The notes below the pieces were generated by a model, which was given only the letters and a program-made list of their open reading frames with translations, was not told the origin of the DNA and ran no database searches. A stretch of DNA of 64,000 nucleotides, taken from Psammoneis japonica (Eukaryota). A program made the position numbers and the translations under genes. Where the stretch lies: the NCBI GenBank assembly GCA_008632985.1, contig QPGO01000104.1, positions 62,001 through 126,000 on the forward strand, in the 5' to 3' direction. Each line of letters begins with the position of its first letter. Within the stretch, counting starts at the first letter, position 1. Of the stretch, positions 11,799-64,000 are shown in pieces.

Positions 11799-12339
11799 GG
11801 CGAGTCTGACTCCGCACTCGATCCTTTCACTTCCGGCGCCCAGAGAAATCCACTCTGAGCACTTCTACCGACCGGCATGTTATGGTGCGCCCGAACGGAT
11901 GTCTGCTGCAACAGCGCAGCTCATTGCCTTGTGTGTTGTGTCATCGACATGAGGCCTTCCTCTCGATTGAAAGAACACAACATAGGACATCAAAATCAAT
12001 GATTTCCCGTCGTCTCCTGCGATCCCATTCCCGTTTCCCTCGCTTTTGCCATGCCAATCATGACAAGATTGAGATCCACATCCATTTAATCCCGCACATC
12101 CTTTGAGAAAATTCTGAGTCGCGAATCAAAACACACATGACATGATGATAAAAACTGACGACTCGCGATCCCGTCACTCGTGCGAAACTAATCCCGTTTG
12201 CCTATGTTGTGAAACTAACCACGACTGAGACCCATCCTTTAGACATGACTGCGCAATCACTGTGATGTCGCAATGAGCGTTCAGGCGTTTGACATGTCGC
12301 CGACGAACATCGAAGCCAGCTCAATGAAGAGTTTAAACA

Positions 12340-14010
12340 GCACAGCTCACGAGATCACCGGTTGTGGCATTGCTGGCAAGTGAAAAAAGCCAGCTGCCAG
12401 CGTGTGCTTTCAAGCAAACTGCTGCTGCAAGCCGAGATGAACATCAAGCTTGCCTCCAACTGGACACATGTCAGGGGGCATTGTGTCACCTTCAGACTTT
12501 TGAAGGAGCCTGCAAAAATCACCTCCAGACTTTTGAAGGAGCCTGCAAACCTCCCAAGACCCTGCTGCCCATTGTCAGCAAAACAGGGGGCTCGCCCAAG
12601 ACTCTCTGTGGGGAGTCAGCTGATGAGCGCCTTCGTGCTTGTCAGGAGGGCAAGACCAAGATCCCAGTGGCATGAATTGTTGTTGCTCATGAGAGCCAAG
12701 AGGTGCTGATGTGGAGGTGGACAGCACTCAAAGCAATGGCCACAATGCCTTTGCAAAGATGACAGCCAGGGCCCCTCACCTTGCCACTTGGCCTGACTCC
12801 TGACGCTGTGCCGAGACCTTGGCCGCTGATGACGCCAAGGCTTGGGGTGCAATTGCAGGCATCATTGCATGAATGAGAGCATTTGTGCTGGGTTTGCATC
12901 AAGTTTTCTCAGAACAACCATGATGGCAGGGCCACCTGCTGCACTGAAACCTGCGCAACAATTTTGTGGGCCCCAAGGCAACAAAATGTGGGAATGATGA
13001 TGCCAGCGCTGCTGAGAAGTGCTCTCCACATCACTCCCCTGCATGGCAAATGCCACAACAGCTGGAGCCCTGCACCAACATCCAAGTCTTGAAGAACTCA
13101 AGGGCGGGAAATCCCTTGTTTTGGGAGGCATTTTGGAAATTTCACAGGAAAAATGGCCAAGGTGAGAAAATGTTTTTTACAAATGTGAGCGCCACTCACA
13201 GAAAAACACTCAAACAGCTTTTGAACAGAAATGCAACAATGGCTGAAATGCATTTTTGTTGAGTGCAATGGAGGTGGAGAGGTGCCCAACTTTCTTCACA
13301 TTGTTTGCACAACGTGTTGTCTTGTTTGGACATTGAGTGCAGAACACACAGGGATGTTTTTCCACAGTTGTGCCACAAACAACTGAAATGTTGGCTGGGT
13401 CTTTGATGCTTTTTGTGGGTGTGTGTCAAAAAACAAGGGAATTTCCACCATCAAGGAATGCGATTGTGCCAGCATTGATGAGTGCTCCAAGGTGCACCAC
13501 CTCCTGCTTGTGAGAGAGTCCATGTCATCAAGAGGAGAACAAGGGTGCTGAGCCCGGCTTGGCCAAGGGGCGCGCAAATCATGGCTGGCACAGTGCTTTG
13601 TGCAGCACAACTTCAAAACACATGCCTGTCTTGTTCAAGGACTTTGTGAGATGGCCCAAGCCAAGCAAAGAGAGTCAAACCCCCCTCTGCACTGTGGTTC
13701 TCAAAACTGGCACAAGTGTGAGTGTGATGATGTTGAGGGCAAGCACTGCCATCCTCACAAAAGGAGTGCTGCAAGACAACTTCTCACGATGCAGCAGAGG
13801 CTGAGAAGAAGCTCCAGCAATGTGCAACCCCACAGACAGACCAAAGACAAGTCATCCAAGGCCGCCAATGCCAAGAACGCTTGGCAGATTGAGGTTCTTG
13901 CCAACGCTGCTGCCCCACCGCTTTGTGTTTCGTGTTTCAATCACGACGCAGCTCACATTGAAAAGATCAGAGCGACAATTCAACGAGTCTTCCACAAGAA
14001 TCTTCATCAG
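12340..14010. other. TpA-depleted island B (degenerate repeat/TE-derived DNA)
   Basis: About one TA (~13178) seen in ~1.67 kb. Strong TG/CA excess. Contains a 33-bp tandem duplication at ~12487-12549. Confidence 0.85.
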
Positions 14011-14244
14011 TTCTAAAGAGTCAAAATGGCTGATGACTCCCTCCACTGCAAACAGTGTGCAGATGTAGCGGCAGAGCAGACAACAGCAGGATCGTCTTCA
14101 TCGCTCGTCTCGGCGCTTTTACCGTGAATTGCATCAAAGATGCGTGAGGCGCGCGGGCAGACACATTTTTTCTGTCGAAACGCACGCGCTATCAATCTCA
14201 ATCTCTGGAAATCGCCTCTGAACAACATCGCTTGGAACATCACC

Positions 14245-25000: not shown

Positions 25001-26478
25001 GTCGGAATGCCACTGAGTTCCGACAGCGTTTCGAGTTCCTCGACCGAGGTAATGACGGTCCCACCCTCTTCGACATCATTGTTGGGGTCGTGATCAAAGG
25101 TCAAATTGCCCAATTGCAACACAACACACAAGGCACGCATGAGGGTACGGAGAGACTCGCCTTCGAGCGTAAACACCTTGAGAGCTTGCAACGTCCGTGG
25201 CCACTGTTCGGCGTCTGTGACTCCGTCAATGGCGTGTGTGTCCGTAAAGCCGAGATATTTGAAGCTCTCCGTGGTTGTGTTTTCGAGTCCACTCCAAATT
25301 TCCTTTTTATACTCGTTCGGTGCCGCCAGCAATTGGTAAAAGACGTGATAGGTCCGTTCGTCTTGAGAATGAGACACGACGCGGCTCTTTTCCAATAGAT
25401 AGGTAGTACACTTGCTTCCCGCTAAAAGACAGTACGGAATATCTCGTCCGTGATGCTCGGCACTGGCCAGACTCTCCACGTCAAACTGAAGTTGTGTAAA
25501 TTTGCCAAACCGACTCGAATTGTCATTGCGAATCGTTTTGGCATTGCCAAAGGCTTCAAAGACGGGGTTGCTTTGCAATACTCGGCGCGTTGTTTCTTCT
25601 GCGGCTGAAACGGTTTCCTCCATGTCATCGTCCGGTGATTCCACTTGTTCTTCCTTGGGTCTTGTCAATTCTAGTGTGGCCAGCGATTGCATTAAAATTT
25701 TTACCGTTTCCGTCTTGCCTGCGCCAGATTCACCCGAAACCAAAATGGTTTGCGTGTCTCCCGACGTCGCGAGTCCCTTGTAACTCAAACACGAGGTTTC
25801 GTAAATGTGCGGATCGAAACCAAGACGATCGTACATGTTTCCAAAGGTACTAAAGTCTTGTTCCTTGTCTTCTTCTTCCAAATCCTTTTCTTCCCAAATT
25901 AAATTCTTGGCATAAACCTCTCGCTTTTCCTGAGAATACAATCCATCAATCCATAAAAACGGATTCATGGCGACCACAATATCTCCAACACGCGTATACG
26001 GCTGTAAGTTGGCATGGCGCTCCTTCAAGTTATACAGAATCGCAGCCTCGTGCAAGAACGGCAAATCCGCCATGTCGCGCTTGCCCAATAATTGTTGCGT
26101 GTTTTTATCAATGTTTTGCAGCGGCAACTCTGAATTATCATAATCGTTCAAATCCACCACGCGAGTCACTTTAGGAACGGCATGATCCGTACTACTCTTT
26201 TCTTCTTCTTCTTCCGTTGTCTCAATCAAGGCATCTTCTAGATTTTCAATCGTCGAATCACGAGACAGTACGGTCGAATCATGCCATGTCTTGGGGATTT
26301 CAATCGATACCGTTACACGTTGTGTTTGCTCAATGTCATCCGTGTTGATAATTTTGGCCGGCAACCATTCATACGCATCATCCTTGACATAGACACCCGT
26401 GACGGATGATTGATATACCGACGATAAGCGACGCGGTGGACTGCGGCGGGGTGGTGGAGTAGTGGATGACGACGACAT
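22046..26478 (-). CDS. Myosin heavy chain (motor, IQ motifs, coiled-coil tail); intron 23306-23211; frameshift ~24910
   Basis: P-loop GESGAGKT, NPVFEAFGNAKTIRNDNSSRFGK, LLDIFGFE, YIRCIKPN and IQ-like repeats. Adding one G restores AKEGCDALAKEIY. The likely start is MSSSSTTPPP at 26478. Confidence 0.92.
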
Positions 26479-26479
26479 G

Positions 26480-27955
26480 GTGTGAAGTGATGTTGTTGAA
26501 AAGCGTTGAGAGAATGCGGGCAAAAGATGTTGGCGAAAAATGACTGCATGAAAAAGCTTTCCCGCGCAAAACGAGTCCCGCGCGATCTTTTGGCTCCTGC
26601 GCTCGCGCTCTTTGATCGCGCGTGCGTTTGGGGGTGAGTGGTTGGCCAGGATGGGGCGACAGACAGAGCAGGAAGTGTCACACAAACAAGAAAGTGCACA
26701 GCTGAATAAAGTCCCAGGGAATGTGGCATGTTTGTTTGAACAGCAACGACACTGGCAACACAGTGCTGCTGTGGAAACAGAAAGATCGCTGGTGCAAAAA
26801 TGAGGGAAACTCTTTGTCCAAAGTCCTTGCAAAAAACAACTCAGCTGTTGCAAGGGTGAAGCTTGCATCAGCCTCCACATTTGGGAAACAGCCATGTCAG
26901 AAAAAGCCTCAGGCAAAGCGGTGAATGCCAACAAAAGCAAAGGGCCCTGTGCAGCGCCGCATGCGCAAAAAATGGTGGCAGACATGAACGGACACCATCT
27001 CATGTGAAGTTCGGCGGCAGTGGCTGACACAAGCTTTCCTGGTTTGTCTTTTGCCATTGCAAGTTTGAGCACCAAGCTGCCCAAGTGCCATGGCTTTGAG
27101 CTCAGTTGCTTGAGCATGCATGACTGAGCCCACTGTCACTTGCATGCATGCACCACTGTGTGGTCACACACAAACATGCCAGCACTGGGCCAGCAAGTTT
27201 TTTGAAACTTGTGCTGGAGAGTCTTTTGTTTTCAAGCCAGGTTGCAGTGGAGGGAGCCTTCAAGCTTGGTCATGGTCAAAGAGCAATTTTTTGACAAACA
27301 ATGGTGGTCAAAGCACAATCTTTCAACAAGTCATTTGAAAGTGCAAGTGTGCTTGTTGTCTCTTTCAAGTGTGACAACTTTGTCTCATCTTCCAAACAAA
27401 TGTCTTGTGCACACAACAAAGCAGTCTCTCAGCTTGCAGCAAAAGTGGTGCAAGCTTTGCAGCTCATTGTCTCATGTGCCCAATCTCCCCGCTGCAGAAG
27501 CTGTGCAAAAACAGCACCAGGTTTTGTTGATGTTGAAGGGAGCTCAAAAAGTTGAAACACAAGGGCACTGCAAAGCCAGGTGCTGACCCTGAACAGAGCT
27601 TTTTTTGTGCAAAACACTGGCAAACTCCCAACACAAGCCAACGAGGCAATGTGCTCCAAGTGGGTCAGTTGAAACCTGCAAATGACCACGGCAAACATGC
27701 AGTCGACAGCTGAGAGGGGGCAACGGCAAAGCCAGCAGTGTGCTCGCTTGCTGGGATTTTGGCAACAAGGGAGTGACGGGCACAACAGTCTGTCCAAAAA
27801 TGGCTGGGAAGTGGGTGATGATGCAGCTGCCTTGTTTGCAGCCTTTGTCAAGCAAGGAGGAGAGGGGGGGGGGGGGGGTGGCAAAACTTCACAGAGAGGA
27901 GTCAGCACAGCAGAGACACTGCCAAAGTGTGGCTGGCTTTGACAAGATTTTCATT
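26480..27955. other. TpA-depleted island C
   Basis: About one TA (~26707) in ~1.5 kb. CpG is retained at the left edge and depleted in the core. G15 run at 27864-27878. Confidence 0.85.
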
Positions 27956-28205
27956 GCAATATTTTCCACCACTTGTGCAGGATTTACACGGAACAGAGTT
28001 GAGTGACATGATGTCTCAATTCGGAGAAAAGCCAATCGAAATTCGAAGCTTGTGATTGGTGTGTAAGAGTCCGCGATGCTGATTCCCACGTCTTTCCCGC
28101 GCCATCACAAAACACGAAACAGAAACGTGACTCAAAATGGCAGGATGAGCGTTATCGCCTCACAAAACAGAAAAATAAAGAATAAAAAACACGACTACAA
28201 GCATC

Positions 28206-29759: not shown

Positions 29760-32235
29760 CAGAAAATTCACGCAGAATGTCTTGTTCATCGTGCAACAAT
29801 GGGCCACGACCTCAAGGAGTCGATTTCAGTCATGATTATCGACACTTTGTGCACTCACTTTCTGATGACTGGCATGACGATGTCCACCTTTTTGCAAAAC
29901 TCCATGTCATTGGAAAATGTTCGCTGTGGTCCCACCACAGCGAAGTGCTGATCAAACAATGGAAAATGGAGGTTTGAAGTGTTCATGCACAGAATCGTGT
30001 TGCTTGTGCAAAAGTCATCATGCAGAGCATCAACGGTTTCAGGGGAAAATGATTCCTTCTTGAGGCAGCCCAAACCCTGATTTTTATGATTTTTTCTGGC
30101 TCATCCAGTTTTGACGGGGTCTGAGTCTGGAACAAGTCCTGCTGTGCATGTTTGGCTGTGTGGCAGCAGCCCCGCTTGGCTGGGCAAAAAAGCAAAGCTC
30201 ATGACTGACCAAATGAAGCAGTGCTGCCCATGTGTGTGCCGCCATTTGAGGGTGGTTGGTTGCTGCTTTTTTGGCTTAAATTTAGCCAAACAGATTGTGT
30301 GTTTGCATGTTTTTTCCTGAGTTTCACCCCGTGCTTGACTGCAGCAAAAACATCAAGCCACAAGTCTGGCTGTGTGGCGAATGTAGCCCATCTTCAAACT
30401 CTCATGTGTTTCATGTTCCTTGCGCACCAAAGATCTCACACACATGAAAAATTTGAGGATGGCAAGCTGCATTTTTGAGAAATGTTGATGATTGTCATCC
30501 TCATTGTGCTTCAATCATGGCGCGCAATGTTCTCGTTTTTGTGTTTGATTGGCGATCGGGTGTGAACAAGAACAAAAGAACAATTTTTGAAGCCAAGAGC
30601 AGACACTGGCATCCAAATGCCATGGTGATTTTGGGGTGAACACAGGGATGACCCCCCTTGATTGGGGCCAAAAGCCATCATTGTCAATGCATCGAGTTCT
30701 CAGGAAACACTTTTGCATTTGAAAAACATGGTTGGCACCGTCAAGTTGCCATCTCTCAGTCATTGGCATGGCAATTTTCTCACCCGCAGTGCAAGAAAAA
30801 AATCAAACCACTCATGGGGGTTCAATGCATGGAGTCTGGAACAGGCAAACTGTGGTGTGGCTTGGGGGGGGGGTGCAGAAATTCACGAGCGCAGTTTGTG
30901 TCACAGAGGGTCAAATGCCAAGTTTCACAAAAAAATGAGGCTTGCAATGAACAAGATGGCAGCAACATGTGAGACTGTTGAGAATCAAGCAAACCAATGA
31001 AATGAAACATGCATTGTGCCACACAGACGTCAATGTGTCGACTGACACACCATGCCATCATCATGGATGTTGCGTCATCTTTCACATTTTTGCCCATCAT
31101 CTGGCTCTTCAGGTCATTGAACCGTGAACCGTGGCAGGGGTTTGCATGGAAGCCCAGGAAAATGCAAAGCATCTGTGAAACATGAACACATCTGTGGTTG
31201 AACATTGTCAAACAGAATTTTTGCTGTGACAAGCTTGAAAACATCTGTCAAATGATGAAGTGCAAGAGCTGTCATTTTGCTTCTTTGAAATTTTCAATTG
31301 AGGAGAGTTTTCAAAATTGCTGCAAAGTGACTGCAAAGCGACTGGCTGCACAGAAACTTTGAAGTGTCTCAAAGAATCTGAAAGTTGTCTGTGCTTTGAA
31401 GACTTTGAAGAAAATTGATTGATGACCTCTGTGTTTTAAAACAAAAGCAATCTTCAACACAGTTGTTCATTCTTTGAAGAAACTTTAAAGGCTGCAGCAT
31501 GATGCAACACCAACTCAAAAACATCTGTCCCTGAATGTCTTCATTGCAAATGGTCAAAAACAGAACCTCACCAAGTTTCAAAAATGAGCATGTCACGGCC
31601 AAGCACAAAGCACAAATGCCACAAGTTTTGCTTGCATGGCACTTGCTGCAGGGCCCCATGCATGCCGGCACTGTGGTCATTGTTGCAATGGGCAAAGGAC
31701 TTGTCAAAGGGTCTGATCACTGCAATCTTGTCTGGGACCAGCTTTTTGGTGAGAACACCATGCTTGGTGGCTGTCATTGCATTGGGGTCATGTGCACCAA
31801 GCCGGCGCTGCGTCTGACTCCAAAAAGGCATGGGGTGCCATTGCTGTGCAAAAGTGAAAATCACAAGGAGCCACCCAGCACTCGTTCACTCTGCTCAGAG
31901 TCTGAGACAGACTCAGCTTCCGCGAACAATTTTGAGTCAGGCCTCCAAGACATCTTTTGGATCTTTGACAGCCAATTCTCAAAGAATGGGGTGAGTGCAC
32001 TGCATGGTGGCACAGTGTGACATTGCGTTGCGAAGCCCCCTGCTTCAAAGTGCACTTTGAAGACACTTTGAAGACACTTCGAAGTGTCTTCAACATTTAA
32101 AATCAAATGATGTCATCTTCATTCAATGGAAATTCTGCGCAGTGACTTCGAAGTGTCTTCAAAGCTTCCAAGACTTAAGGTGGTGCAAGACAAAAATTGT
32201 CGGGAATTTTTTCTGGTGTGATTTCTGCACTTTTC
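29760..32235. other. TpA-depleted island D
   Basis: About 8 TA in ~2.5 kb, mostly in TTAA/TTA context. TG/CA excess. Confidence 0.85.
32043..32093. repeat. Two adjacent perfect palindromes (20 bp at 32043-32062; 26 bp at 32068-32093) built from cttygaag units
   Basis: cttcaaagtgcactttgaag and ttgaagacacttcgaagtgtcttcaa. Related units at ~32145-32165 and ~31357-31410. Confidence 0.85.
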
Positions 32236-41331: not shown

Positions 41332-41919
41332 CCAAAACGAGGGTCACTGCCACCGCGCGTGCAGTGACCCCCCAAAACGAGGGTCACTGCAGCTGCGTTA
41401 AATTCTACGTGTTTGTACCAGGAAAATGTACCTCCAACCTATCCGGCAGGCGTGAGTAATATTTTACTACAAATTGCAAGACAATTGCGCGATTCACGTG
41501 CCCGAAGGTGGAATATCGTTGCCCGAAGCAACATTCTCCCTTCGCGCAGATGTCAATTCTACGTATGATGTGGTATCAAAATTTTCATTTTGGTCGTCTA
41601 AATCGTCCCAGTCATTTCATCAAATGACCTTGTGGTACTCTCCTACGTGATCTACGCAAATCGGAGCTTCGGGCTGGCTGGTACATTTTCTACAGGCTCT
41701 ACGTGCGCGAAGCTCGAATTTCAACAATCACCCTTCGGGCACGTGAATCGCGCAATTGTCTTGCAATTCGTAGTATGTACGAGAAAGAGTTCGTTGGGGC
41801 AGGCGAACAACATCACTCTACGATGCGACTGGTACAAAATCTACGTAAATGCACAGACACGCTCTGGAGCATGTCTGTGCAAATTCGAGCTCGTAAATAA
41901 TAAGCAGGGATATCGCATA

Positions 41920-44900
41920 CAACATCATGACCACGATCGGGCACCGAACGCACAAACGACAAGCGATGGAGTGTGGGCATCTCCAGCAGTTTTGCATGAG
42001 TCACAAGTGGTGAGGTGCAATTCCTCCACAGGAACATTGCCAGAGCAACAAAGGGTGTGTGCCATCTCTTTGTCCAAAGTGGGCTGAAAGAAGTGTTGTC
42101 TCAGGCTGTTTTCCGCATGTGGCTCCAATTTTCTCACATCCTCGCTGTCAAAGCCAGCAAGTCATGAACAACAATCGCGCTTTGCACCTGCTTGAGTGTG
42201 GCAAGATTTTGCAAATGGGCAGCACTGCTGTGGTGGTTGTGCTGTTCCCACCTGTGGTGCACTGAGGAGAAGGTCATGTGTCTCTCAACACCAGAGTGCC
42301 AGCACAACAAGATGCTCCTCATGCAGGAAAAGAAGGGGTGGATGATGCAAACAATGTGGGCTCTCTGTGGTTCAAAGGTTGCGTGAAAATGCATCTTCCA
42401 TGATGAAGCTGCACAGCTTGAGAGGCAACTCAGCAACACCCCACCTGCCAGGCATTTTGAAAATTTGTCATTTGTCATTTCCGCTCAACAGCAGCTTGTG
42501 CAGCAGCAAGAGCTCTTTTTTTTTCTGGGCGATGCACCGCACAACGTGGAGGAAAACAAATGCAGCTTGCCCCCCATGCTTGCATCAACAAAAGCAGTGG
42601 CAGTGCTGAGCCCTGTTTGATGGAAGTCAATTTTGTCCATTTGTCAACAGGGAGATTGTGGCAAGTGTTTGGAGTCTCTCAACAAGGAGGTGGTGTTCAA
42701 GATCTGTGCCAGAGACCACAAGCCAAAGGCTCTTGTTTCCTGAAAAGAGCTGTGGGGGAGGATTCATCAAAACACATCACATTGTCCTGTGCATTGCAAG
42801 CACAAGGCACTCTGCTGCTTGTGAGGGGCTTCTCAATGATGCTTTCAACATGATCATCCACAGTTTCTGTCATTTTGTTCTGGAGAGCATTGGCAAACAC
42901 AAGCAAAACAACCAGGTGAACATTTGAACGACATTTTGTTGTCTCTTTGTTTTGGGTGCAAGGGACTGCAATTTTCAAACAGAAGAGCTTGGTGTCAGTT
43001 CATTGCTCCACAGATTGCACCAGAGCACAGCTGGGCCAAGTCACCCAGCTTGACAGAGCAAGAATCACATGCAGCCACAACTCCAGCAGATGTGTTCCAG
43101 CCCCCCAGGCAGGACCTCACAGTGCTGCTGAGGTGCAACATTTGAGCACAGGGGATTGACTTGGTGCAGAAACTGTGCAGATTTCTGTGCAAACAATTGC
43201 CCAATTTTGGTTGAATTGGGGGAATGAATTGCAAACTCTCAAAACTGCATCTCAACAAAAAATGGCTCCATGCCACACTTCAAAGCTTGCATGATGGCCC
43301 AAAGCATTGCAAGTCTTCATTTTTAGCTGACAACACTGCACTGAAGTTTGAGAAGAGAGGCAGAGGAGAAATCATCGTCACACACAAAAACAGAAGCAAC
43401 CACAGAGCAGCCATGCAGCGCGCCTGCTCTGGCCTCAAAGCTGCCACAATTGACAAGACATTTTGTGCCTCTCATGCCACAAAAGGTGACAAGGTTGCAA
43501 ACAAAATGTTTGATGCATTTCAAGCCAAAAATCAGGACAAGCCATTTAACAAATTGGAACCCAAGGGCACAACACATTTTAGCAAGCACTTGTCAGATGA
43601 GCCCATCATCCATCAGCATGGCAATCCTGACAAGGAGCTGATGGGGGTTGATGCCAAGCAGCAAATTCTTGGCACAGAAGCAAAAAAATGAAGTTTCCCA
43701 AGCACCCTGACTGGGAAGATGAGGGCAAGTGGTGCACAAGCCTCTCCGCAGCAGCGACATGGCAAAGGCTGCTGGCAAAGCCAGCCTGCTAGCATGGAGC
43801 ACATGGACAAAAAAACTTTCCCTCTGGCCCAATGTGTTTTTTCAGAACATGTTTGAGCAAAGAGCAAAGCACCATTCTTGTGTCAGATGGAAGTGCAATG
43901 TTGAGAATTGAAAGTGAGGCATTTGCATGTGACACAGAGATGTTGTTTCTTGCTCTCTGGCTCTGCAGCACAGTTGTCTTTTGTGATGAACAACGGCACT
44001 CTTTAGCAGCATTGCCAGATTTTAATGAGTGCCATGGCTCCTTTTAATGATGCAACCAATGGCTTTGTGATTTGTTCTACAAGAATTTGGAAGCTGCGTG
44101 GTGTGAGTCCAAGACAGTGGATTTGTGTGGACTTCTTTTTCCACCAAACAAAACATCTTGTCTCTTTCATTTGTGCTGTGCTTTTGCAGACAATGTGGAA
44201 AAGGAACTCCACAAACACACATTTCCATGGAGAATCTGGTGTGAAAGCTCAAGGCAAGTTGTTTTCATTGAACAGGACATCTTCAATGCTTTTGCACAAG
44301 TTGAGCAGTGAGATGACATTTTTTCTCAGGAAAATTGCCAGAGCAACACAACCAATGTACACCATCTTTATCCAGAGTGAAATTGTTGTTCATCAAGAAT
44401 CTTTTGTCTGGATGTTGTGGCAGCCTTTCTTAAAAGAAATGTTGTCTCAGGCTCTTCCTGCTCCATGACATTTTGGACACAGCTCCAACTTTCTTGTTGC
44501 TGTCAAAACTGGTGATTCACAAACAACAGGTGCCATGGGCTGCCCTCCACTTGAATGCAGTGAGCTTTTGTAAATGGATTTTGTGGTGCTGCTGCTCCTG
44601 TGGTGCATTGAGGATGAGGTTGACACAACATGTCGATGCAACATGAACTTCCACCACATGCAGTGAAAAGGAAGTGAGTGCCACAAACAGCGTGAATGTC
44701 AAGATTGAAAGGGAATGACAAGGCATCCTTGATGAAGATGCTGGGGTTAAGAAGTGACTTTTAAACACCCCACCTGTGAGGCATTTTGAATTTGTCAATG
44801 ACAGCTTGCTCAATCACAAGAGCCCCTTTTGCTTCTTTTTTTCCCAGATGAAAAACCCAGCAGATGCGGACAAGAAAAAATGCAGCTCATTCCTGCTTGC

Positions 44901-44990
44901 ATCAACAAGAACAATGGAAGCACTGAGCCCTGTCAAACAGCAGTTTGTTTCAGTTGTTGTTCAACAGGATTGTCATGAGGGTGTTTGGAA
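41920..44990. other. TpA-depleted island E containing two diverged copies of a ~1-kb unit (~42000-42953 and ~44300-45350)
   Basis: No TA seen from ~41915 to ~43320. Collinear shared blocks include attgccagagcaaca, tgttgtctcaggct, aacaccccacctg and tgcttgcatcaacaa. Confidence 0.85.
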
Positions 44991-45348
44991 TCTCGAGGAG
45001 GTGTTCAGGATCTGCCGGAGACTACAAGCTCAAGGTTGTTGCCTGAAAGAGGAGCCACGTGGAGGACGCAGCGAAGTGTGCCATCTTACAGCACCAATCA
45101 CGTGCATTACAAGCATTCGAATATTTTTGAAAATCAGGACATGGTGGCGGGTTCAATCGAATTTACTTATTCAGGCGACTTGTGAAGGGCTTCTCAACAT
45201 TCCACATGAACTATTGGGCGTTATTTTACTCTCTACTAGAGAGAGGGCGTTACTTGCAAACACAAGAAGTTCTTGAACAAGGAATCTCGGATGCAGCTCT
45301 CGACAAAACTAGGTAAACATTTGAGTAATATCTCGCTATCTCTTTGTT

Positions 45349-46398
45349 TTAAGCGCTCTGTAGATTTCGTCGAAGCGTGAACCGAGTCAACCGGCTGCCA
45401 TGGCCTTTCCCCCCCCTTGCTCCATTCTTACACAACTCTGGCTTATTGGTCAACATCCAAAATAAAAAGTCGGCATTGTGGCTTGACCGAGCAAATGCAT
45501 GCGACCACAACCCCAACGGAACAAGTCTCGGCGATCGTACAAGGTGTCGTCCTGCCTTGTTCATGCTGTAGTAGCAGTTCATTAAGACTTGTGTGGTATC
45601 ATCATCAGTCCTTCCAGACAATAATGAAAATGACGTCTCTCCGATTTCTTGTACAGACGTAATTAATTTGGGACAATTGTCGACATTTAGCACTTGCAGC
45701 TTTGACAATAGTAATATCGCTTTTGGTATCTCAACAAGACGAGAGCAAGACGATAGCTTCAAAACTTCCAGGTTATCCAGGTCGCCGATTGTACTTGATA
45801 ACGTTCGAATATTGCTGCAACCAGTTAGGTCTATTTCAGATAGCTCCGATAGCTGACCAATCGCATTGGGGAGGCCTGACAAGAGCTCACAAAAGTTCAC
45901 CTTTAGCCGATTCAGACGACGACACGATCCAAACTCCACAGGCAGTTCCTTTAGACTTTCACAGCGACTCAGTGTCAGCTCTCTTAAATTTTGGAGATTG
46001 CCAATCTCAGACGGCAATTCGTTCAATGCCCCACAGCCAACAATGGACAGGCGGCGCAAATTCTCACCAAGAACCTGGAATGTCTCTTGAGGCAGCTCTT
46101 GCAACCGTGGACAGTCCACGAATTGCACCTCTTGCAATTGCTCGAGCTGCACGATTTCAGGAGAACAACTCTGAAAATTGCTGCAATTCGATATACAAAG
46201 CGTTTCCAAATGGCGCAACAAGACAATTTCAGGAGGCAACTCTATCAAACCACGACAGTTCTTTAGAGTGAGTTTTGTGCAGTTTGCCAAGCCAGTTTTG
46301 CGTGTGTGCAACGTCGCATCAACATGACGATGCAATCGAATGGGCTGCAAGCCCATGGCCTGAGCAAGAGCAAGAATAAAGCGTTGAGAGCGATCCAT
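45349..46398 (-). CDS. Leucine-rich repeat protein (LxxLxLxxCxxLxxLP repeats)
   Basis: 349-aa ORF with ~8 LRRs of plant NLR-like type. C-terminal N.AGR.L...PLGLW..AF motif. Confidence 0.85.
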   Translation of the reverse strand: MDRSQRFILALAQAMGLQPIRLHRHVDATLHTRKTGLANCTKLTLKNCRGLIELPPEIVLLRHLETLCISNCSNFQSCSPEIVQLEQLQEVQFVDCPRLQELPQETFQVLGENLRRLSIVGCGALNELPSEIGNLQNLRELTLSRCESLKELPVEFGSCRRLNRLKVNFCELLSGLPNAIGQLSELSEIDLTGCSNIRTLSSTIGDLDNLEVLKLSSCSRLVEIPKAILLLSKLQVLNVDNCPKLITSVQEIGETSFSLLSGRTDDDTTQVLMNCYYSMNKAGRHLVRSPRLVPLGLWSHAFARSSHNADFLFWMLTNKPELCKNGARGGKGHGSRLTRFTLRRNLQSA

Positions 46399-46749
46399 AC
46401 TGCACGGGGCACTTATTTTCCGTTTGTGGTTTGCAGCATTTCGGTCATGATCGATCTCTTATCAGCACAACTGTTGATGGGCTGAATAAACAGCGCAGCA
46501 GCCATCAGCCGCAGCGGGACTGTAATGTGGAGATGGTCGATTTCATTCGTGCGTTCAAGTCGTGTTTAAAATTTGAAAAATTTCGGTTCAATTTCGACGT
46601 TTGCGTAAAAAACATACGAAATTGACCAATCCAAACAATCATCACGTCTCACAGTGATGGAGGTCAGTGAGAGAACGGAGGTCACTGCGCGCATTGTATT
46701 TAGATCTTCCATCTTATTGTCCAAGGCAGTCTTGCACTCCTTAATCTGT

Positions 46750-49700
46750 GCAATGGCCATGTCTGGTTGTGTCCAGTGTGCATTCAAGAGGGCTTCATGG
46801 GTTTGAGCTCTTTGACTTCCCAATGGTTTTGTCCCCTTGAGAGAACAAGACCCGCAGGCTTGCACCACACATGACTGAAAGCAACAACGAACATCTTTGA
46901 CATCCTTTTTTGGGCAACTGCACTGAGCCACAGTGCAAGCTGAGCAGCAAACTCCAGCCCATTTTGTCGGCTCCAGAAAAGGTTTTTGACATGCAGGTTT
47001 TCATTCACAAGTGCCTCACTTGCCAGCTGAGCCAAATGAGTGCCTTTTGGCACCGTTTCCTGACAATCTTCATTTGGCATGGGGGGCAGCATCAACTGAC
47101 ACACCACCAGTGTCCTTCCAATCTTGATTCGCTGTTTTGGAGGATGCATGCAGAGTCTTGCCACTTGAATCTTCATTGAAGTGCTTGCCGGCAGATGGCA
47201 TGGCTGCTTTTAAAGATGTGCCGGCGAGCAATGGCAGCCGCAATGTTTTGTCAACAAGTTTGGTCTTTGTTCTGCAGCTGCACGTCGCCAAGTGGCAAAC
47301 ATTTGAATCTTGTAAAATTTGGAAAGGCCAACATGTGCACATGCATTTTCAAATTCTCTTTAGACTGCGGAATTTTCTGAGGGTTTTGTCAACTCGTCTC
47401 CACTCCGACCTCGTTTTGGAGCAATGGCAAAGAGAGGAGTTCAAGCCACATCACATGGTCAGGAATGGCATGCCCACACATTTTGTTTCTGTTTGTGACA
47501 ATGCAAACCTGCTGAGTCTTTTGGGGAGTTGTTTTCACCGGCATTCCGAAGGTCACCGCATCTCCCATGATTTGGGTTTGGCACTTTCATGCTGTGAGTT
47601 CCTTTGCTCGTCTGTTGTGGGTTGCTCCCCTCGGGCTCACAATCTGCTTTGTAAAAAGATTGTGAAGAGGCATTTCCCCTGGCACACCTGTTGAGCAAAA
47701 GCAACTGGCCTCTTTTTCCAATGCCAGCCCAGCTCACAACTTGATCATTGTGAGTCATGCATCTGCTGGTGAGCTTGACCACAGCAAGACTCACATTTGC
47801 CCAGTGCCTTTTCTGTCCAGGCATTGCACTGGACTTTCAGTGGCTCCAACTGTCTCTTTCCCAGCTGGCAAGTTCTAATGCAGACCACCATGGCCAAAAC
47901 TGGCAATTGTTGAAAAACACTCAGCACACATTCAAGGCAATTTGAGCTTGTCACTCACTGTCAATGTGCAGCAATGGCTTGTTCAATGACAAGAGCCCTT
48001 TTCAGTCTTTTTGTTGCATGAGGAACAAGTGATTGTTGATCTGAAAAGAGCAAGTGCAGCTCTTGTCTGCAGGGTTGTGACAAAGATGCTTGGAGTTTCA
48101 AAAAGACATTTGGAATCTGCTGAATGTCAACAAGCTCAAGAGGCAGTTGTGCCTGAAACAGGATCTGTGCCAAGGACGTGGCAATGCATGCCACCTTGTC
48201 TCATGCTTTGCAAGGTGCTCCACACCATTTGTGAAAATTGGCACATGTGCGGTGGCAGGTGAAATCAATTTGAGGCACTTTGGGCAACCACTTGGTTTTA
48301 CAACAAAAGGCTTCTCGATGTCATCCTCAGAGAGTGCTGACAAAGACAAAAGCAGTTGCTGAACAAGCAAGGGCTCTTGGTCACCACTCAACAAAACCAG
48401 GCAAAACAACTGCACAACACATTGTCATCTCTTTGTTTTGTGAAAGCAGGGGCCTGTGTGGTTTTCAAGTGGGCTGCCTCTTGTGCAGGAGAGTGTGAGC
48501 TGAGTCAACCAGCTGCCACAGTGTTTCTGCCCATTGCTCCACCCCCTTGTGTGACTTTGGTTTGTTGGTCAGCATGAGACCACAAACCCAACAAGAAAAC
48601 AAGTCTTGGCAATCACACAAAGCAGCATTGTCCAGCCTTGTCCATGCTGCAGCAGCAACTCATCAGAGCTTCTTCCAGACAACAGCAAAAATGATGCAGT
48701 CTTTTTGATTGCTTGCACACAGTGGGTGTGATCAACTTGGAGAAGTTGCTGGCACATTTGAGAGCAAGAACGAGGTGGCAGGTTCAAAACTTCCTGGTCA
48801 TTCTCCAGGTTGCTGGTTGTTTGACTTTCTAAAGCTGCAATTTTGTGGAGTGAACAAGTTGCCCCACACATCTCAATGAAAAACTGTCTTTCGCTCAAGT
48901 TCAGCATGTCAAAAAAGCTGGTCCAAGCAAAGAGGCCCTGTTTTCCTTAGTGTTCCAAAGATCTCTTCTGCAATGACAGTGAGAACAAATCATGGCACAG
49001 CAGATGTGGTCCATTTGATTGGCTCTGCCATTTTTGGGATCTAAGATGACAATCTGAAAAATGTTCTTGTGGGTCCATTGAGGAGTGGGAGCAATTTGTG
49101 GCTGCAAATGTTTGAGTGGCAGGGGTTGGGGACAACAGTGCCCCTGGCCCCACAAAACCACCATGAAAACAATCTACAGAACTTTGCAACTCACTTGTCT
49201 TGAAAACCTCAATCATTTGCACAAGTTCACTGGCCCGGTTTTGTGATGCAAAATGCACAATTTCCAGCCCAATCCATTTGTCGCATCATCAGGAAAAATC
49301 TCTCAAATCTGCCTCACTGTGAGAAGAGTCTCCTGAAGAGCTGGCTGGCACCAAACCTGGGTCACCTTGTTGTGCCACCTCATTGTGAGCACTCATGAAC
49401 TCACGGAGTGCAGCCCTCCTGTCACCTTCAACCATGTCGTCAGCACGTGTCAAGCCAATGCCCCGATGGCCTCAAAATCCCTTTGGCACCTGTTGAACTT
49501 CTTTGACATTGGTGTCCCCAGATGAGCAACTCAAGCACTCTGCAAGGGTGCCTTGTTGCTCTGAATGACGAAGTTCCTGAAGGAAACGCCCCCCACACCC
49601 ATGTGAACTCCGCTGTTTCGACAAACATTCTTTGGCCCAACCAGGGTTTCAATGTGCTCTTTGAGAACACTTTCATCTGCTGGGGGCAATTTTCTCAGTG

Positions 49701-50100
49701 TTGCAAGTTCCCCAAATTGACCCAAGTGAGCATCGCTCTTGGCAGCACCAGGAAACAAAATTTGCAGGGCAAACACTCATCGCTGCCTGGGGTTGAGTCA
49801 ATGAACTGTCGCAATGTTGTGTTGTGACCCTGAGATTGATTCTGGACCCAATGTGTCTGCAGGAACAGAAAGAAACAATGAAGATCCTCCCTTGTTGCCA
49901 CTTTTCTTCTCTGTGTCGACAACACAACAAAACAGTGACATTGTTGAGCGACAAGCAAATGGCGGGGACTGCGGAAAGCATGGTCCTCACAAAGACTTGC
50001 TTTCTTCTGCTCAGGGCGTGCCTTCCGTTCTCGGCTACCTTTCTCGGCTTTCTGATCCTCAAGCACCGAATCGACCCCCTTGAAATGCACCTGACGTTCG
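46750..50100. other. TpA-depleted island F
   Basis: About 12 TA in ~3.35 kb by eye. TG/CA excess. Bracketed by a ~50-bp diverged direct repeat. Confidence 0.85.
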
Positions 50101-56361: not shown

Positions 56362-56579
56362 GGTGTTTTTTTTGGGTGTCGTTTTTTGTGTGTCGCAAGG
56401 ATTTGTGACGAACGAACGAGAGCGTCAGAATGATACGCTGAGCGATTCCGTTTTTGTACATGAGAATAATAGGAAGAAGGGAATCATTCATTTCTCGAAC
56501 GATGCGAACCCTGCGGCGCGTGGAATGATGGCGCCATCACCGTGTATGTCGTTGGACCGATGGACGGACTTACTTCTTG

Positions 56580-58480
56580 TTGCCAGTGCGTGGTGTGCAC
56601 TGTGTGAACTGCACAAAGCAACAAATGTGAAGCTGTGACTTGTTTGAAGCACGCTTGCATGCAAATCCTCAGTGGGAAGTGACTCTCCTCTCTTTCTTCT
56701 CACATCATTGTGTGTGCTGCGTCCGTGTGTGTCTTTTGGAGCTCTCCTGCACCTCTGCTTGCTGCGCGCCTCTTTGCCTGAGATGACAAAACAAGGAGCG
56801 GTGGGCCCGACTTGCAGCAGCACTCCATGGCATTGACTCTGTCAGTTTGGGGCTTGTTTTCAACTTGCTAGAGTGTTTCACCTGATGAGCTGCCTGAGTG
56901 TGTCAACATGTCACAGCAAGAGAACAAACTCTCAACAGCGCACTGCAAAAGACGCTCCCCCAGCACTGTGGTCACACGCACCAAAAGCAACAAGGGCAGC
57001 CAGTTTCTCCACTCAGCTTTGCAAAAAGCCACCTCCCTGGGCAGCATCTTGTTCTAAGCACCTGAGTCAGCATCAATCAGAACATGATGTCATCATGACG
57101 GAAATGTCACCCACCCAATGAAAGCGACATGGTTGACATCACCTGTGACGTCATTGTGCAAAACCATCAAAACAAAGAACATCAAAAGACCTCTCCTGTT
57201 GGGGTCATTCTTCTCCATTGCTGTCAGTCTCCTGTTGCCATGTTCACTGTGCTTGAAGAAGAGTGCAAATGAAACAGAGTGAAGTGCAAAAAGCAAAAAT
57301 GTGAGATTGGATTTTGCACAATCACTTTGGGTTTGTCCAAATGAGTTCTCAATGGCCTAAATTTTCTGCACTGCTCCCACATGAGAGAGGCCTTTCAGAG
57401 AATGCAATCGTGACATCAGATTGTCCAGGTGCAATTGCTGTTGACACATGAAATGTCAGCATTGAACTCTGCATGATCGATCTAACTGACCTTCGCATGA
57501 ACTCACAATCAATGCACGATTGAGCACACAACAATGTGCAAGCACACACATGCACATTGTGCAACATGTGCAAGTTGTGTGGTGCACCATTTGGCCATTT
57601 TGCAAACACCTGAACCCCCCACGCACATGCGTGTAACAACAGCAACATCATCACATCATGACAGCCGCAAAATTGTGCCAAATCATGAAATGAAAATGGA
57701 GTTTTCTCTGCACCTCAAGAGCTGCCATGTGCATTTCTCCTGCGGCCTTTTGACATCAAGCTGACAAAACTCACCCCAGCTTGTGTCATTCTTGATCTCT
57801 TTTTGTTTTCCTTTGAGATTGTCAAGGGTGGGGCTGCCTGAAGCAGGCCACAGAGCGCCAACTGCCGCCAAACCGCCATGACACAATGCACACAATGCCA
57901 AGCACCGTTCTTTTCCAGTCAGCTGCCAGACTTGGGCCACCTGAAGTGCTGCCATGACACAAAGCACCAATGGCTGACTGACCCACTTTTTGCTGCCAAA
58001 CTTCCACACAGAGACTTGCTAGAAGCAGGTGGTAGATGAAGTTGTCAAGAAGGTTTTCTGACATCACTGAGAAAAAACTTGGCATCCTTGTTTTGTTGTC
58101 CACCACTTTTGTGTGAAGCAGCAGTGATCAGCTTTGTGCAAGGCAGCAGCGCTCGCTTTCTGCTCGCCACTGCAGCAGAGCCTTCAGCATGGCTTGTTGC
58201 TTTCACTGATGCCTCCACACATTTAATTCATTTCTCTGCCCAAACTTGCACCCCCTTGTCACTCAAGAAACTGAGTTTGATGTTCACTCACCCACTTTTG
58301 TCGGCGTGTCTCTCCAACCATTGTGCACACACATGATGGTGCTTAGAACTGCAGCATTCAGCAAGCTTGACAGATTTGTTGGGAAGGCTGATCCAGAGCG
58401 TAGTTCTAATGGCCATGGATTTTTGAAAAGCCTGTGAGCATCATCGTGGAGCGACCGCTTGCGCAGCATTTCTGGTGTGC
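56580..58480. other. TpA-depleted island G
   Basis: About 10 TA in ~1.9 kb, nearly all TAA/TAG. Abrupt switch to TA-rich DNA at ~58490. Confidence 0.85.
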
Positions 58481-61129: not shown

Positions 61130-64000
61130 CTTTCTCATTCTCTTTCGACACTCGACTGCCCGGACGGGCTTTGCACCGCCAGTTCCTCCTTCTCTCTCAC
61201 TTTTTTGCATGTGGCACATGGCTTAACACCAACCCCTGCAAACTAACCTGAACTTGCGTTGTCTTGGTGGTTCTAGACATGTTGTGATCTGTCAAATCTG
61301 GTTACTTCTCTGTTGGTCTCTTTTAGTTTTGCTTCATCTAGATTGCCCTTCCAAATGAGTTGTCCACAACATCAGTCAACATGACATTTTTTCTTACATT
61401 GACTTCACTTGTGGGTTCATTTTGTGCAAGCTGTGATCCACAATTTGCCTCTGGTCCTCAAGATGCTTCCCCAGCAAAAATGATCTGTAGATCCAGATGA
61501 CAAATGTTGGAAAACTGGGTGGGCCAATGAGGAACAAGTCACTGGATGAACAAACACCCACCCATTGCCAATTTGAGGCAGCAGATGAAGTTTCATTTCA
61601 ATGTTTCAACCGCCCAACTGCAGACACTCTGGGGGGTCCATGTCACCTGCAGCAGGAAAGATCCCTGCTTGGTTTGTGCAGGGTGCACAACGACACCATG
61701 CTGCTGTCTTTGTTCTGATTGCAGCCACAGATTGTGGCTCTTTCCACACACACACACAAAAACATCAACTCTCTGTTTTGTGTCTGTCACAACAGCTCTG
61801 CTTGGGCTTCTCTGCTGCCTCTCAACTTTCTTGCAGCTGCCAAAGAAAGTTGCAAAGGGTCAGTGCAGCTGGCGGGCAAGTTGTGCCAGCATGGCCCATT
61901 GAGAACATTTGCAGCCCCTGTTGGAAAACAAATTTTTGCACTGACACACTGCACCAGCAGAAGATTGTCAAAAAGCAGCTTTCTTGTCCATTTTTCATGC
62001 GCATTTTTTTCTTGGTCAGGTTGAGGGGGGAGCTTTTGTTGCTGCTTGCTGCACCCTTTGCTTGTTGTCTTTGCCTCTTCTCAAGCTTCTGAGTGCAATG
62101 ACCAATCAACAGAGCAAAACAAGATGCTGGTGGAACAAAAGAGCACCAAAGGGCCACAACATAAAGTGCAAAACTGTTGTCAAGCAGGCAGCCAGCCACA
62201 CAGCCAGTGCTGCATCATCAGCACATGTGCAGCATGCTCCAGTGCTGGGTGGAACCTTGTGCTGCTGAGCTGCAATGCTGGCAGCATTTTGTCTTGTGCA
62301 GGGCCATGTTTTCTGCTGCAATCAGGGGGGGGGGGACATTTGTTGTGGCACGCTCTGCAGAGAAACAACGCCCTTTTTTTGATGTTTTTTTCATGCAGAG
62401 GTGTGGGAGAGCTGGTGATCATGACCTTTCTGCAACCTTCTTTCAATGCCCAAAAAAATGCTTTGTGTGGCAAAAAAGTTGAGAAGTGAGGAGGGCTTGC
62501 CTTCGTGGAAAGAGGGGTGCGGGCCATTTGATCAACGTGCTCCCCAGCAAAATGCGTGCCCAGAGCTGGGGCAAAAAACAAGCAACCTCATCAGAGCGCG
62601 AAATGTGGTGATCCTGGCCACCCTTCTTGTGGGCAATTTTTAATGCCATTGCATGTAAAAATGCACACCCATCCTTTTGAGAGAGTTGTGTAGAACGTGA
62701 TTTTTTATTGCACATCACAGTGTGCCATTTTTCACCATGGGACCCCTCCTTCACCCATGGGACCCCTCCCTTGACTGTCAGAATTCCGTCACTTTTCACC
62801 TTTTGAAAGCGATGTTCACAACGTTTTAGTCAACAACAAATCAATGCCAATCATTGCGTTGCATTGATTTAAGAACCTCACATTGCACACACTGGCTCCA
62901 TTGCGTGCACTGGCTGGAAAACAAAAGGTTGTGTCACAAACCAATGATTCCTAAAACACTTCATCAAACCTCACAACTGTTGGCATTGAAACCCACTGCA
63001 TTGCTCATCCTCTTTCCATTGTCACACTGACAAAAGCCTCCGCTGCCTTTTCACACCGCAGCTTGCTCATCCTCTGCATCTGCACTCGTGTCGCTGCCCG
63101 CATCACTTTCCTCCTCCTCTTCCTCGCTGTCCTCGTCTCCTCTGTTCTTGTCCATTGCCTCTTCCTCCTTCTCCTCATCGTCACTTGAAAGCTCTGTCGT
63201 TGCCTGTGTTCTTGCCTCCTCCACCGGCTTTTTCTTTCTTTTCAATCCCTTGCCTCTTTCGTCAATCTTCCTTTTCTTGCCTTTGCTGTGCCATGTGTTG
63301 AACTGCATGCCCTCCTCACTGAACCTGTCTTTCTTTACTTCTGCCATCAGCTCGTTGAATCGCTTGATCCCTGCATCCTTCCAGGAGTCTCGTTGCCTCG
63401 ACGGGTCCGTGTGCTTGGGTGTTGGTTCCAACTCTTCCTCATCTTCATTGTCCGAACCTCCCCCTGCTGCAACAGTCTTGTCATGACGTGCCTTGTGCTC
63501 CCAACTCTTCCAGCAGTTCTCCAATGTCAACAGCACTGGAGCCTCGTCGCTCGCTGCAGCCAGACCGGTTGCCTTCGTCTCACCCGACTCCATCTTCCTT
63601 CTCCATGTGGTGGTGCTCTTTGTGAATTTCAGGATGTTTTCGCAGAACCAAGCACATGCTTCCTTGTTCTTGCGCTTGTCCTCCACAATCGTTGTCACTG
63701 TCTCCTCCCCCCAAGTTGCCAGGAATGGCTCTTCCTCTTCCGTGCGATCGTTCTTCTTCCTCTTCTTGCTCTTCTTCCCACATCCACCCTTTGCTGCCGG
63801 CTCCTTCTGACTGCGCATCTCCTCTGCTTCATTCTCTGTCAACACGACTTCAGCAAATGAAGGTGCAGCTGTGTTGAGCACAACTAAACTCAACATGCCG
63901 TGCACCACAAAACACTTGCCAGCCGTTGCATTGTTCTTGATCGCCTGAGTGACCGTGCTCCTTTTCGCGTTAATTGCATGCATGATGCACTTCTTTGCCC
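61130..64000. other. TpA-depleted island H (TE-derived, continues beyond window)
   Basis: Very few TA. CpG is depleted in ~61300-62500 but retained in 63050-64000. Confidence 0.85.
63051..63983 (-). pseudogene. Mutated transposon-associated-type ORF (SDEA..LL.LEN.W...PK.T...W...GI.RFNEL...V..DR family), Tyr-free
   Basis: 310 aa with no Tyr. I recall this motif from repetitive diatom/oomycete hypothetical proteins but have not verified it. Positions expected to be Tyr or Leu read TGC, CAC, TGT or CCA. Confidence 0.6.

Follow-up and report, generated by a model that had tools for sequence, protein, structure and literature searches.

In a stretch of 64,000 nucleotides from the diatom Psammoneis japonica (assembly GCA_008632985.1, contig QPGO01000104.1, positions 62,001 to 126,000; hereafter the window) we found eight islands from which the dinucleotide TA has almost vanished and CG is strongly depleted, TG and CA being in excess. 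Three copies of a duplicated segment, which appears to comprise the 3' end of a leucine-rich repeat (LRR) gene and its downstream flank, lie within or across the borders of these islands, and their comparison reveals what happened to each TA and CG. We consider it likely that the islands result from position-targeted mutation in at least eight blocks, by which TpA suffered A:T to G:C transitions on either strand and CpG was also lost by transitions. The pattern of the substitutions, their regional confinement, the independence of the copies from each other and the dependence of TA on its flanks can be read directly from the counts that follow.

The islands were located by a 500-bp scan, and their edges were followed in profiles of TA and CG per 100 bp. 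They total 16,679 bp, about 26% of the window, and carry no strand assignment:

1..1000, island I1, cut by the start of the window, with 5 TA and 17 CG in 1000 bp
12335..14013, island I2, with 1 TA in 1679 bp
26461..27959, island I3, at the 5' side of a myosin gene, with 1 TA in 1499 bp
29838..32097, island I4, running into the N gap at 32236-32453, with 6 TA and 39 CG in 2260 bp
41919..45022, island I5, holding copy 1 of the duplication, a 1.3-kb spacer and most of copy 2
46743..50035, island I6, with 10 TA and 45 CG in 3293 bp and no Pfam family in six frames
56572..58019, island I7, with 5 TA and 26 CG in 1448 bp
61489..63884, island I8, with 9 TA in 2396 bp

Observed/expected ratios (o/e) in the islands are 0.05 for TA, 0.28 for CG and 1.75 for CA/TG, compared to 0.57, 1.00 and 1.18 in the rest of the window (44,419 bp). 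Expressed per kb, the islands hold 3.1 TA, 16.3 CG and 218.8 TG+CA, and the rest of the window 40.6, 54.4 and 146.9, respectively. The pyrimidine-purine total is nevertheless conserved (238.1 per kb in the islands, 241.9 in the rest) and G+C is near-equal (0.480 vs 0.466), so the islands look like ordinary DNA in which TA and CG were altered by transitions. Mass balance agrees with this: adding the missing TA (37.5) and the missing CG (38.1) to the 146.9 TG+CA of the rest of the window predicts 222.5 per kb, and 218.8 are observed. The same shift would leave G+C unaltered, close to what is seen. The boundaries are sharp, within about 100 bp in the 100-bp profile. Island I5 contains 14 TA and 28 CG in 3104 bp, when about 126 and 169 would be expected at non-island density. 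It includes the longest TA-free run of the window (41919-43323, 1406 bp), which has a probability of 1.6e-25 at the non-island TA density; thus, island I5 is not a product of chance.

No island is a copy of another one, and for most of their DNA the window contains no paralogue. Six-frame searches of all eight islands gave no Pfam family at threshold, the only hits being Cnd1_N (E 0.092) and DUF2798 (E 0.078), both far under the cut-offs. Neither an Rfam family nor a transfer RNA was found in the islands, and a tandem-repeat scan showed nothing relevant. When 186 non-island frames were compared to the islands by tblastn, the tail of the LRR protein was the sole match, besides three self-overlaps.

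The paired evidence for the fate of TA comes from island I5 and its surroundings. The first-pass annotation of the window had proposed that a diverged duplication of about 1 kb is located here, and that TA in its second copy corresponds to TG or CA in the first. The elements concerned are the following:

41990..42953, plus strand, copy 1, fully converted, with 0 TA and 10 CG (alignment A1, below)
44288..45022, plus strand, part of copy 2 within the island, converted, with about 8 residual TA (alignment A1)
45023..45350, plus strand, tail of copy 2 outside the island, with normal TA and CG, directly downstream of the LRR gene stop
45352..46458, minus strand, live LRR gene, a stop-to-stop frame with its first Met at about 46398 and its TAA stop at 45349-45351
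47949..48663, plus strand, copy 3, a decayed and fully converted duplicate of 44775-45582, within island I6

The duplication is real. Among the 12 direct-repeat families found, nine pair 42010-42953 with 44308-45350, all colinear, at a spacing of 2298-2397 and with 71-92% identity, and the five sequence pairs originally quoted are all present where they had been placed. We aligned 41990-42960 to 44288-45357 with MAFFT (alignment A1, 894 ungapped columns), obtaining 67% identity over the 684 columns in which both copies lie in the island and 64% over the 210 columns in which copy 2 lies outside. Copy 1 shows a weak colinear extension to about 43090. A dead LRR gene was searched for in the spacer (42954-44287) and none was found, the sole match being the 43 nt of this colinear extension (E = 0.002).

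Not one of the 21 ungapped TA of copy 2 is kept in copy 1, where 9 are TG, 6 are CA and 6 are something else. The formal alignment thus bears out the change of TA to TG or CA (15 of 21). Moreover, TA is altered more often than other dinucleotides: these are kept in 420 of 833 cases (p = 8e-7, Fisher), and they show a single-transition outcome in 177 of 833, compared to 15 of 21 for TA (p = 1.8e-6). The loss had been described as one of TA, which holds, but CG is lost likewise, a fact that had been missed: none of its 14 occurrences in copy 2 is kept (p = 1e-4) and 9 correspond to TG or CA. When only the well-aligned blocks are considered (flank identity of at least 0.6), TA becomes TG or CA at 9 of 11 sites and CG at 4 of 4.

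Copy 2 had also been described as running out of the island and retaining TA. This is correct for its last 300 bp or so, but not for 44288-45022, which is itself part of the island. Seven residual TA of that part are ungapped, of which six stand opposite TG or CA of copy 1 and one opposite GC. Beyond 45050, the tail contains 14 ungapped TA and 10 CG, none of them kept in copy 1. The profile here is back at 4-7 TA per 100 bp and the composition is ordinary, with o/e values of 0.60 for TA, 0.84 for CG, 1.05 for TG and 1.24 for CA. The tail is probably the 3' untranslated region or the terminator of the LRR gene.

The third copy had gone unnoticed, only copies 1 and 2 having been recognised. Relaxed blastn searches match it to 44775-45582 in three segments (E = 6e-17, 9e-12 and 9e-9), that is, to the end of copy 2 plus 232 bp of the 3' coding end of the LRR gene. 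In agreement with this, tblastn places LRR residues 290-321 at 48672-48571 with 59% identity. The gene itself has good domain support (Pfam LRR_14 at 2.6e-21, plus nine further LRR families). Homology between copies 1 and 2 stops exactly at its stop codon. As the match of the third copy runs into the gene and copies 1 and 2 end at its stop, the sequences indicate that the duplicated unit is the 3' end of the LRR gene with about 1 kb of downstream flank, copies 1 and 3 being dead fragments of it.

In a three-way alignment (A3), counted at live-copy positions from 45050 onwards, none of the 20 TA of the live copy is kept in copy 3, and 16 are TG or CA. Only 1 of 24 CG is kept there and 17 are TG or CA, compared to 194 of 414 kept for other dinucleotides. 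Against copy 1 the result is similar: 0 of 22 TA kept (12 TG or CA), 0 of 20 CG kept (9 TG or CA) and 127 of 357 other dinucleotides kept. The effect is also apparent in the protein sequence, where NCYYSMNKAGRH of the live gene reads SCCCSMDKAGQC in copy 3. Tyrosine codons TAC have become cysteine codons TGC, two of them in tandem (TAC TAC to TGC TGC), and an arginine codon CGA has become the glutamine codon CAA. The TAA stop of the LRR gene is CAA in both dead copies. A fourth, unrelated pair was found between the non-island segment 10455-10609 and 13980-14135, the right margin of island I2, which is partly converted (core of alignment A2). Ten TA of the non-island member correspond to 6 TG or CA, 2 kept TA and 2 others; its 8 CG correspond to 3 kept CG and 3 CA.

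A pair of copies does not by itself tell which state is older. Further information on direction was obtained from sites at which one copy has TG and the other CA. Such flips account for 29 of 171 sites between copies 1 and 2, compared to 25 double transitions at 662 sites of other dinucleotides (p = 2e-8), and for 19 of 78 compared to 10 of 284 in the well-aligned blocks. According to our own arithmetic, about 28 flips are expected in the part where both copies lie in the island if the ancestor had TA and CG at normal density and each copy was then converted independently at even odds (50:50), and about 5 if the ancestor was TA-free and double changes arose at background level only; 25 are observed. 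To flip, a site must pass briefly through TA or CG and then be resolved either way, which argues against pure selection and against a process that makes TA. Transversions, which the process leaves alone, give a star tree over 576 columns, in which the live copy is the odd one out 22 times and the other two 76 and 53 times. As the live branch is the shortest, it is implausible that this copy gained 46 TA and CG, since some 40% of its TG/CA sites would need to have changed. The direction from TA to TG or CA is also supported by the mass balance, by the third copy and by the ordinary composition of the copy 2 tail, with no TA excess of the kind produced by repeat-induced point mutation (RIP), and the normal TA and CG of non-island non-coding DNA point to conversion too. 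The direction first proposed is hence supported by several internal lines, and we strongly infer that TA and CG became TG and CA.

The process affected both strands equally, as 31 TA events yielded 14 TG and 17 CA. Runs tests (16 runs vs 17.1 expected, and 11 vs 12.2) showed no clustering. Neighbouring events are thus independent, which argues against an RNA or single-strand intermediate. The survival of TA, measured as residual island TA relative to non-island DNA, depends on the flanking bases:

TTAA, survival 0.42
CTAA/TTAG, survival 0.28
CTAG, survival 0.11
GTAA/TTAC, survival 0.10
ATAA/TTAT, survival 0.065
CTAC/GTAG, survival 0.045
GTAC, survival 0.02
ATAT, ATAC/GTAT and ATAG/CTAT, survival 0 (0 of 605)

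An additive two-strand rate model, again by our own arithmetic, predicts the six mixed contexts well from the rates of the four palindromic ones, as expected of a rate process acting on two strands. Summed over both strands, a rule on the +1 base is equivalent to a rule on the -2 base. In a test of the chosen strand (n = 34), C followed the mutated A 11 times on the chosen and 6 times on the unchosen strand, a difference that is not significant.

TA and CG did not behave alike. A 5' A makes TA most prone to conversion and a 5' T least, while CG is most converted after a 5' T and least after a 5' G. TA loss also extends further than CG loss. At island I3 it begins at 26461, about 250 bp ahead of CG loss (about 26700), so that 26500-26700 has 0 TA and 8-9 CG per 100 bp; CG is also largely kept in the margin of island I2 and at 63000-63884, the part of island I8 beyond about 63000 being TA-free with near-normal CG (3-6 per 100 bp). 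As edges, completeness and flank preferences differ, two processes seem to be involved, and the simplest reading of the sequences would be decay of methylated CpG together with a separate process at TpA.

Some features at the island edges deserve mention on their own. Owing solely to the lack of TAA and TAG in island I3, the stop-to-stop frame of the myosin gene (24793-27135, minus strand) continues into this island for about 675 bp. The right edge of island I7 is abutted by a TA-rich block (58400-58700, 11-14 TA and 0 CG per 100 bp), and this step is the sharpest change of composition in the window. The segment 63000-64000 has 1-2 TA per kb and a strong strand skew (GC skew -0.33, AT skew -0.41). 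On its minus strand, a frame abounding in Glu, Asp and Lys stays open for about 330 codons and is cut off by the end of the window. It could be a low-complexity gene in a TA-free zone or a false frame arising from the absence of TAA and TAG.

What determines the target was addressed through the island edges and the neighbouring repeats. The edge of island I5 cuts copy 2 at about 45022-45087, sparing its last 300 bp or so and the duplicated end of the gene. Moreover, the left edge of the same island adjoins a high-copy element in which TA and CG are normal:

41465..41775, no strand assigned, element resembling a miniature inverted-repeat transposable element (MITE), high-copy, its inverted ends being 44 nt long and 98% complementary

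In public run X1 this MITE-like element is covered thousands of times, and some joints bridge its two ends exactly, leaving out 309-326 bp, so empty sites or other copies must exist. Smaller inverted and direct repeats (41229-41320 and 41332-41397) lie upstream of it. An edge running through copy 2, a spared gene end and an untouched MITE-like element, taken together, indicate that the target is not set by repetition. Nor is it set by mere lack of constraint, since 18 non-island segments free of open reading frames (ORFs; 9177 bp) are normal, with a TA o/e of 0.70 and a CG o/e of 1.00; ORF-covered DNA has a TA o/e of 0.52. Islands stop a few hundred bp short of coding sequence: island I5 ends at 45022 and the LRR stop lies at 45349, and island I6 begins at 46743 with the first Met of the gene at about 46398. 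The target would then be a chromatin domain bounded at gene ends.

The island sequence was found again in an 8923-nt Logan contig of run X1, which covers 41884-47000 with five substitutions and one 1-base indel. Thus, the sequence is not an error of one assembly, although X1 may be the source sample and therefore not fully independent. Two of the five substitutions are neighbours and turn TG into CA at 42840-42841. By chance, neighbours would occur among five substitutions with a probability of about 0.004, and the pair hints that the process is still running. The remaining differences within the islands are single transitions: position 44068 has TG in the window and CG in the X1 contig, and 43559 differs by A and G with no TA or CG involved. 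Another public run, X2, leaves the islands uncovered; what kind of run it is we can only guess, and we draw no conclusion from it.

Several other explanations have to be weighed against targeted conversion. Pairwise comparison alone gives no direction, and the dead copies agree with each other at 11 of 16 informative sites. One could therefore suppose that the islands show the ancestral state, and that a RIP-like C>T change at CpA created the TA of the copy 2 tail and of the gene. We give this hardly any credence: a gain of CG would also be required, the short live branch (22 of 576) does not fit change at some 40% of TG/CA sites, the tail lacks a RIP-type TA excess, flips cannot be produced in this way, and in a working gene it is the TA-bearing state that provides the TAA stop and the tyrosine codons. 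Equally hard to believe is an artefact in which modified bases were misread in sequencing, the molecule holding TA and CG where TG and CA are read. If a modified T or A in TpA were misread on one strand, only CA or TG would indeed result, never TA or CG, but reads of one strand would then give one outcome, when copy 1 switches between the two over a few bases (CA opposite 45310, TG opposite 45314) without runs. The X1 contig, assembled independently, departs from the window in this choice at a single dinucleotide over 5.1 kb, and paralogues that differ by indels and by 11-13% transversions are truly diverged. It is very improbable, too, that the islands are functional and intolerant of TA and CG, be it as long RNAs protected from nucleases or as DNA kept free of sites for TA-targeting transposons. 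As TA and CG are self-complementary, their exclusion from one RNA strand would leave a symmetric picture, and joint avoidance of CpG and UpA is known, as PMC3829696 reports, in cytoplasmic RNAs and RNA viruses. Yet copies that are about 67% identical, with many indels, conserve nothing else, the excess of flips would demand passage through the forbidden state, the survival of TA is additive by flank like a rate, and the islands lack any Rfam family, tRNA or Pfam domain.

A genome-wide mutation bias at TA and CG is another option, selection keeping both dinucleotides in functional DNA and the islands being the only neutral DNA. In line with this idea, no test pointed to coding sequence in the islands, and dead gene fragments lie in two of them. 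We nevertheless regard it as improbable, as ORF-free non-island DNA has more TA than ORF-covered DNA (0.70 vs 0.52) and normal CG, edges are sharp within about 100 bp, a TA-rich non-coding block abuts island I7 and high-copy MITE-like DNA is unconverted. Two further proposals concern the chemistry. A single deaminase could edit A at TpA and C at CpG, each time leaving TpG on the edited strand, with no need of cytosine methylation. Both losses occur in the same islands and end in TG/CA, and a preprint on Bigelowiella natans cites a report of ADAT2 deaminating A and C in DNA (bioRxiv 10.64898/2026.01.13.699255). That one enzyme did both is unlikely, though worth keeping in mind, because TA-loss edges reach further (by about 250 bp at 26461-26700, and also at 63000-63884 and the I2 margin), CG loss is less complete (o/e 0.28 vs 0.05) and the flank preferences differ. 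Alternatively, the T of TpA might be oxidised or hypermodified to a base resembling hydroxymethyluracil (hmU), formyluracil or base J by an enzyme of TET/JBP type, mispair with G and give T>C. The base pair changes would be the same, so all counts fit equally, and dinoflagellates and kinetoplastids do carry hmU and base J at TpA. Still, we have no evidence here for such bases in diatoms, and the struck strand shows at most a weak preference for C after A (11 vs 6 of 34, not significant); we think this route unlikely.

Some observations weigh against targeted TpA conversion as we propose it. All counts come from one 64-kb window. Where the dead copies both have TG or CA, they are concordant at 11 sites and discordant at 5 (binomial p = 0.21, not significant); this could reflect shared history or a site-specific bias of outcome, and by itself it would also fit a live copy that gained TA. 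To assume two processes from the differing edges of TA and CG loss is less economical than to assume one. No viral or transposon domain was found in any of the eight islands with Pfam, so foreign DNA is not evident as the target, although heavy decay could hide its origin. Finally, no outgroup species or further genomic copy was found to settle the direction. The C-terminal half of the LRR protein gave one hit in a protein database, an oak LRR protein of no use as an outgroup, and a scan of metagenome contigs for the myosin gene found nothing. A metagenome scan with the UDP-glucuronate decarboxylase of the window returned 80 loci, of which 10 were diatom-like (77-84% identity, about 50 kb). 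None of these ten was orthologous to an island or had an island-type 500-bp window, the sample being too small to show absence in diatoms. Among the other 70 loci, one GC-rich locus had a marginal window, with normal CG.

Returning to targeted conversion, the following course of events appears likely. An old segmental duplication of the LRR gene 3' end with about 1 kb of flank would have left the three copies that remain. The dead copies and the distal flank of the live copy would have come to lie in islands, where they were converted independently and site by site, both outcomes being about equally likely, and the live copy would have kept ordinary TA and CG in the gene and the adjoining 300 bp or so. 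The agent is presumably an enzyme editing DNA in a silenced chromatin domain. Most likely, it would deaminate the adenine of 5'-TpA-3' and leave inosine, which is read as G, a step also put forward for B. natans. In parallel, cytosine of CpG would be methylated and 5-methylcytosine then deaminated.

Around the islands, the window is gene-dense eukaryotic DNA with a G+C of about 47% and long reading frames. The encoded domains include a myosin head, a P-type ATPase, an adenylate kinase, a SOUL protein, an Fe-S assembly protein and the LRR protein, among others. The UDP-glucuronate decarboxylase frame (37738-38631) has at most 87% identity to database proteins, and the organism-named entries among its top 85 hits are all diatoms (Grammatophora, Attheya, Amphora and Seminavis). 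A paralogous gene pair at 4599-5515 and 7376-8283 (73% identity over 926 bp, one member with a weak B_lectin match) lies outside the islands and has normal TA and CG. The frame at 17120-18505 combines an adenylate kinase domain with a C-terminal domain like CaMKII-association/DUF4440, an unusual pairing. A perfect 24-bp tandem repeat of 3.1 copies (35027-35100) lies within an FG-GAP repeat gene, with diverged copies also at 34965-35218.

Our literature search found no report of such TA-free islands in diatoms, the sole close precedent being the 2026 preprint on B. natans. Other systems resemble the islands in part. RIP of ascomycete fungi is likewise a regional flood of dinucleotide-specific transitions that ruins duplicated or dead DNA. 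It turns C:G into T:A, mainly at CpA, and so makes TpA (RIPCAL, PMC2621366). Here TpA is destroyed, and a TA o/e of 0.05 with a CA/TG o/e of 1.75 is the opposite skew. Moreover, RIP is triggered by duplication and hits both copies, when here a boundary cuts a repeat copy and a high-copy element is untouched. Decay of methylated CpG is also a regional change of CG to TG/CA and would account for the CG half of the signature, but it leaves TA alone. Diatoms methylate CpG in transposon-rich regions. ADAR and APOBEC enzymes produce deaminase floods of transitions against selfish or foreign sequence. However, they act on RNA or single strands in strand-coordinated clusters, whereas the events described here are strand-balanced, unclustered and located in resident DNA with no sign of a retro-copy. 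ADAR is not known outside animals. According to the discussion of the B. natans preprint, ADAR favours U before the edited A (bioRxiv 10.64898/2026.01.13.699255).

The B. natans system is the closest. Mettrop et al. report in that preprint (bioRxiv 10.64898/2026.01.13.699255) that, of 231 new mutations arising in mutation-accumulation lines within a region of integrated giant virus (nucleocytoplasmic large DNA virus, NCLDV) and a virophage region, 230 were A>G or T>C, and that these lay at TpA without exception. The rate given is about 6e-7 per site per generation, some 1000 times the background. The preprint also describes 124 clusters of a few kb in a genome of about 95 Mb, many of them unannotated, that are depleted in TpA and enriched in CpA+TpG, and its authors suggest, as an untested hypothesis, that an adenine deaminase resembling ADAT2 edits the DNA (bioRxiv 10.64898/2026.01.13.699255).

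It is tempting to propose that a permanently active, domain-targeted editor of double-stranded DNA removes TpA in diatoms, or in this one at least, that it has by now rewritten about a quarter of the window, and that this is the same ancient system as that of Bigelowiella, shared across stramenopiles, alveolates and Rhizaria (SAR) as a mechanism of genome defence or heterochromatin marking; we hold this to be a tentative idea, somewhat more doubtful than probable. If true, the flank rule (ATAT and GTAC fastest, TTAA slowest) would be the fingerprint of a natural TpA-specific A-to-G editor of DNA, and A:T to G:C change at a defined chromosomal dinucleotide would oppose the usual GC-to-AT bias of mutation. 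The end state seen in a diatom would show that the process is not confined to one species, that a sizeable part of a compact genome can be reshaped by it and that it hits dead host DNA besides viruses. The islands would be a record of the sequence preference of the enzyme and of how its target is bounded at gene ends, and the enzyme, its guidance and its link to methylation would become testable in transformable diatoms. There are consequences for annotation as well: TA-free DNA lacks TAA and TAG and forms long false frames, so gene callers are likely to over-extend or invent genes, and converted pseudogenes evade similarity searches.

The likeness to B. natans consists in the change of TpA to TpG or CpA on both strands, in confined regions and in depleted clusters, the evidence here being comparative and that of the preprint newly observed mutation. 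The confinement to certain regions of an otherwise ordinary genome is seen here as well, in eight islands with sharp edges. Viral or foreign targets are not: the only identifiable content of the islands is decayed ends of a host LRR gene. The host here is a diatom, a stramenopile, and there a chlorarachniophyte. The islands are saturated (TA o/e of 0.05 over about 26% of the window), whereas the preprint gives a Rho of 0.45 for the NCLDV insert. CpG is lost here, and the main text of the preprint nowhere uses 'CpG', 'flank' or 'diatom'; compared with that main text, dependence on the flanking bases is described only here. In summary, the comparison supports the view that the islands represent a variant of a recently described targeted hypermutation, in a major algal group for which genetic tools exist.

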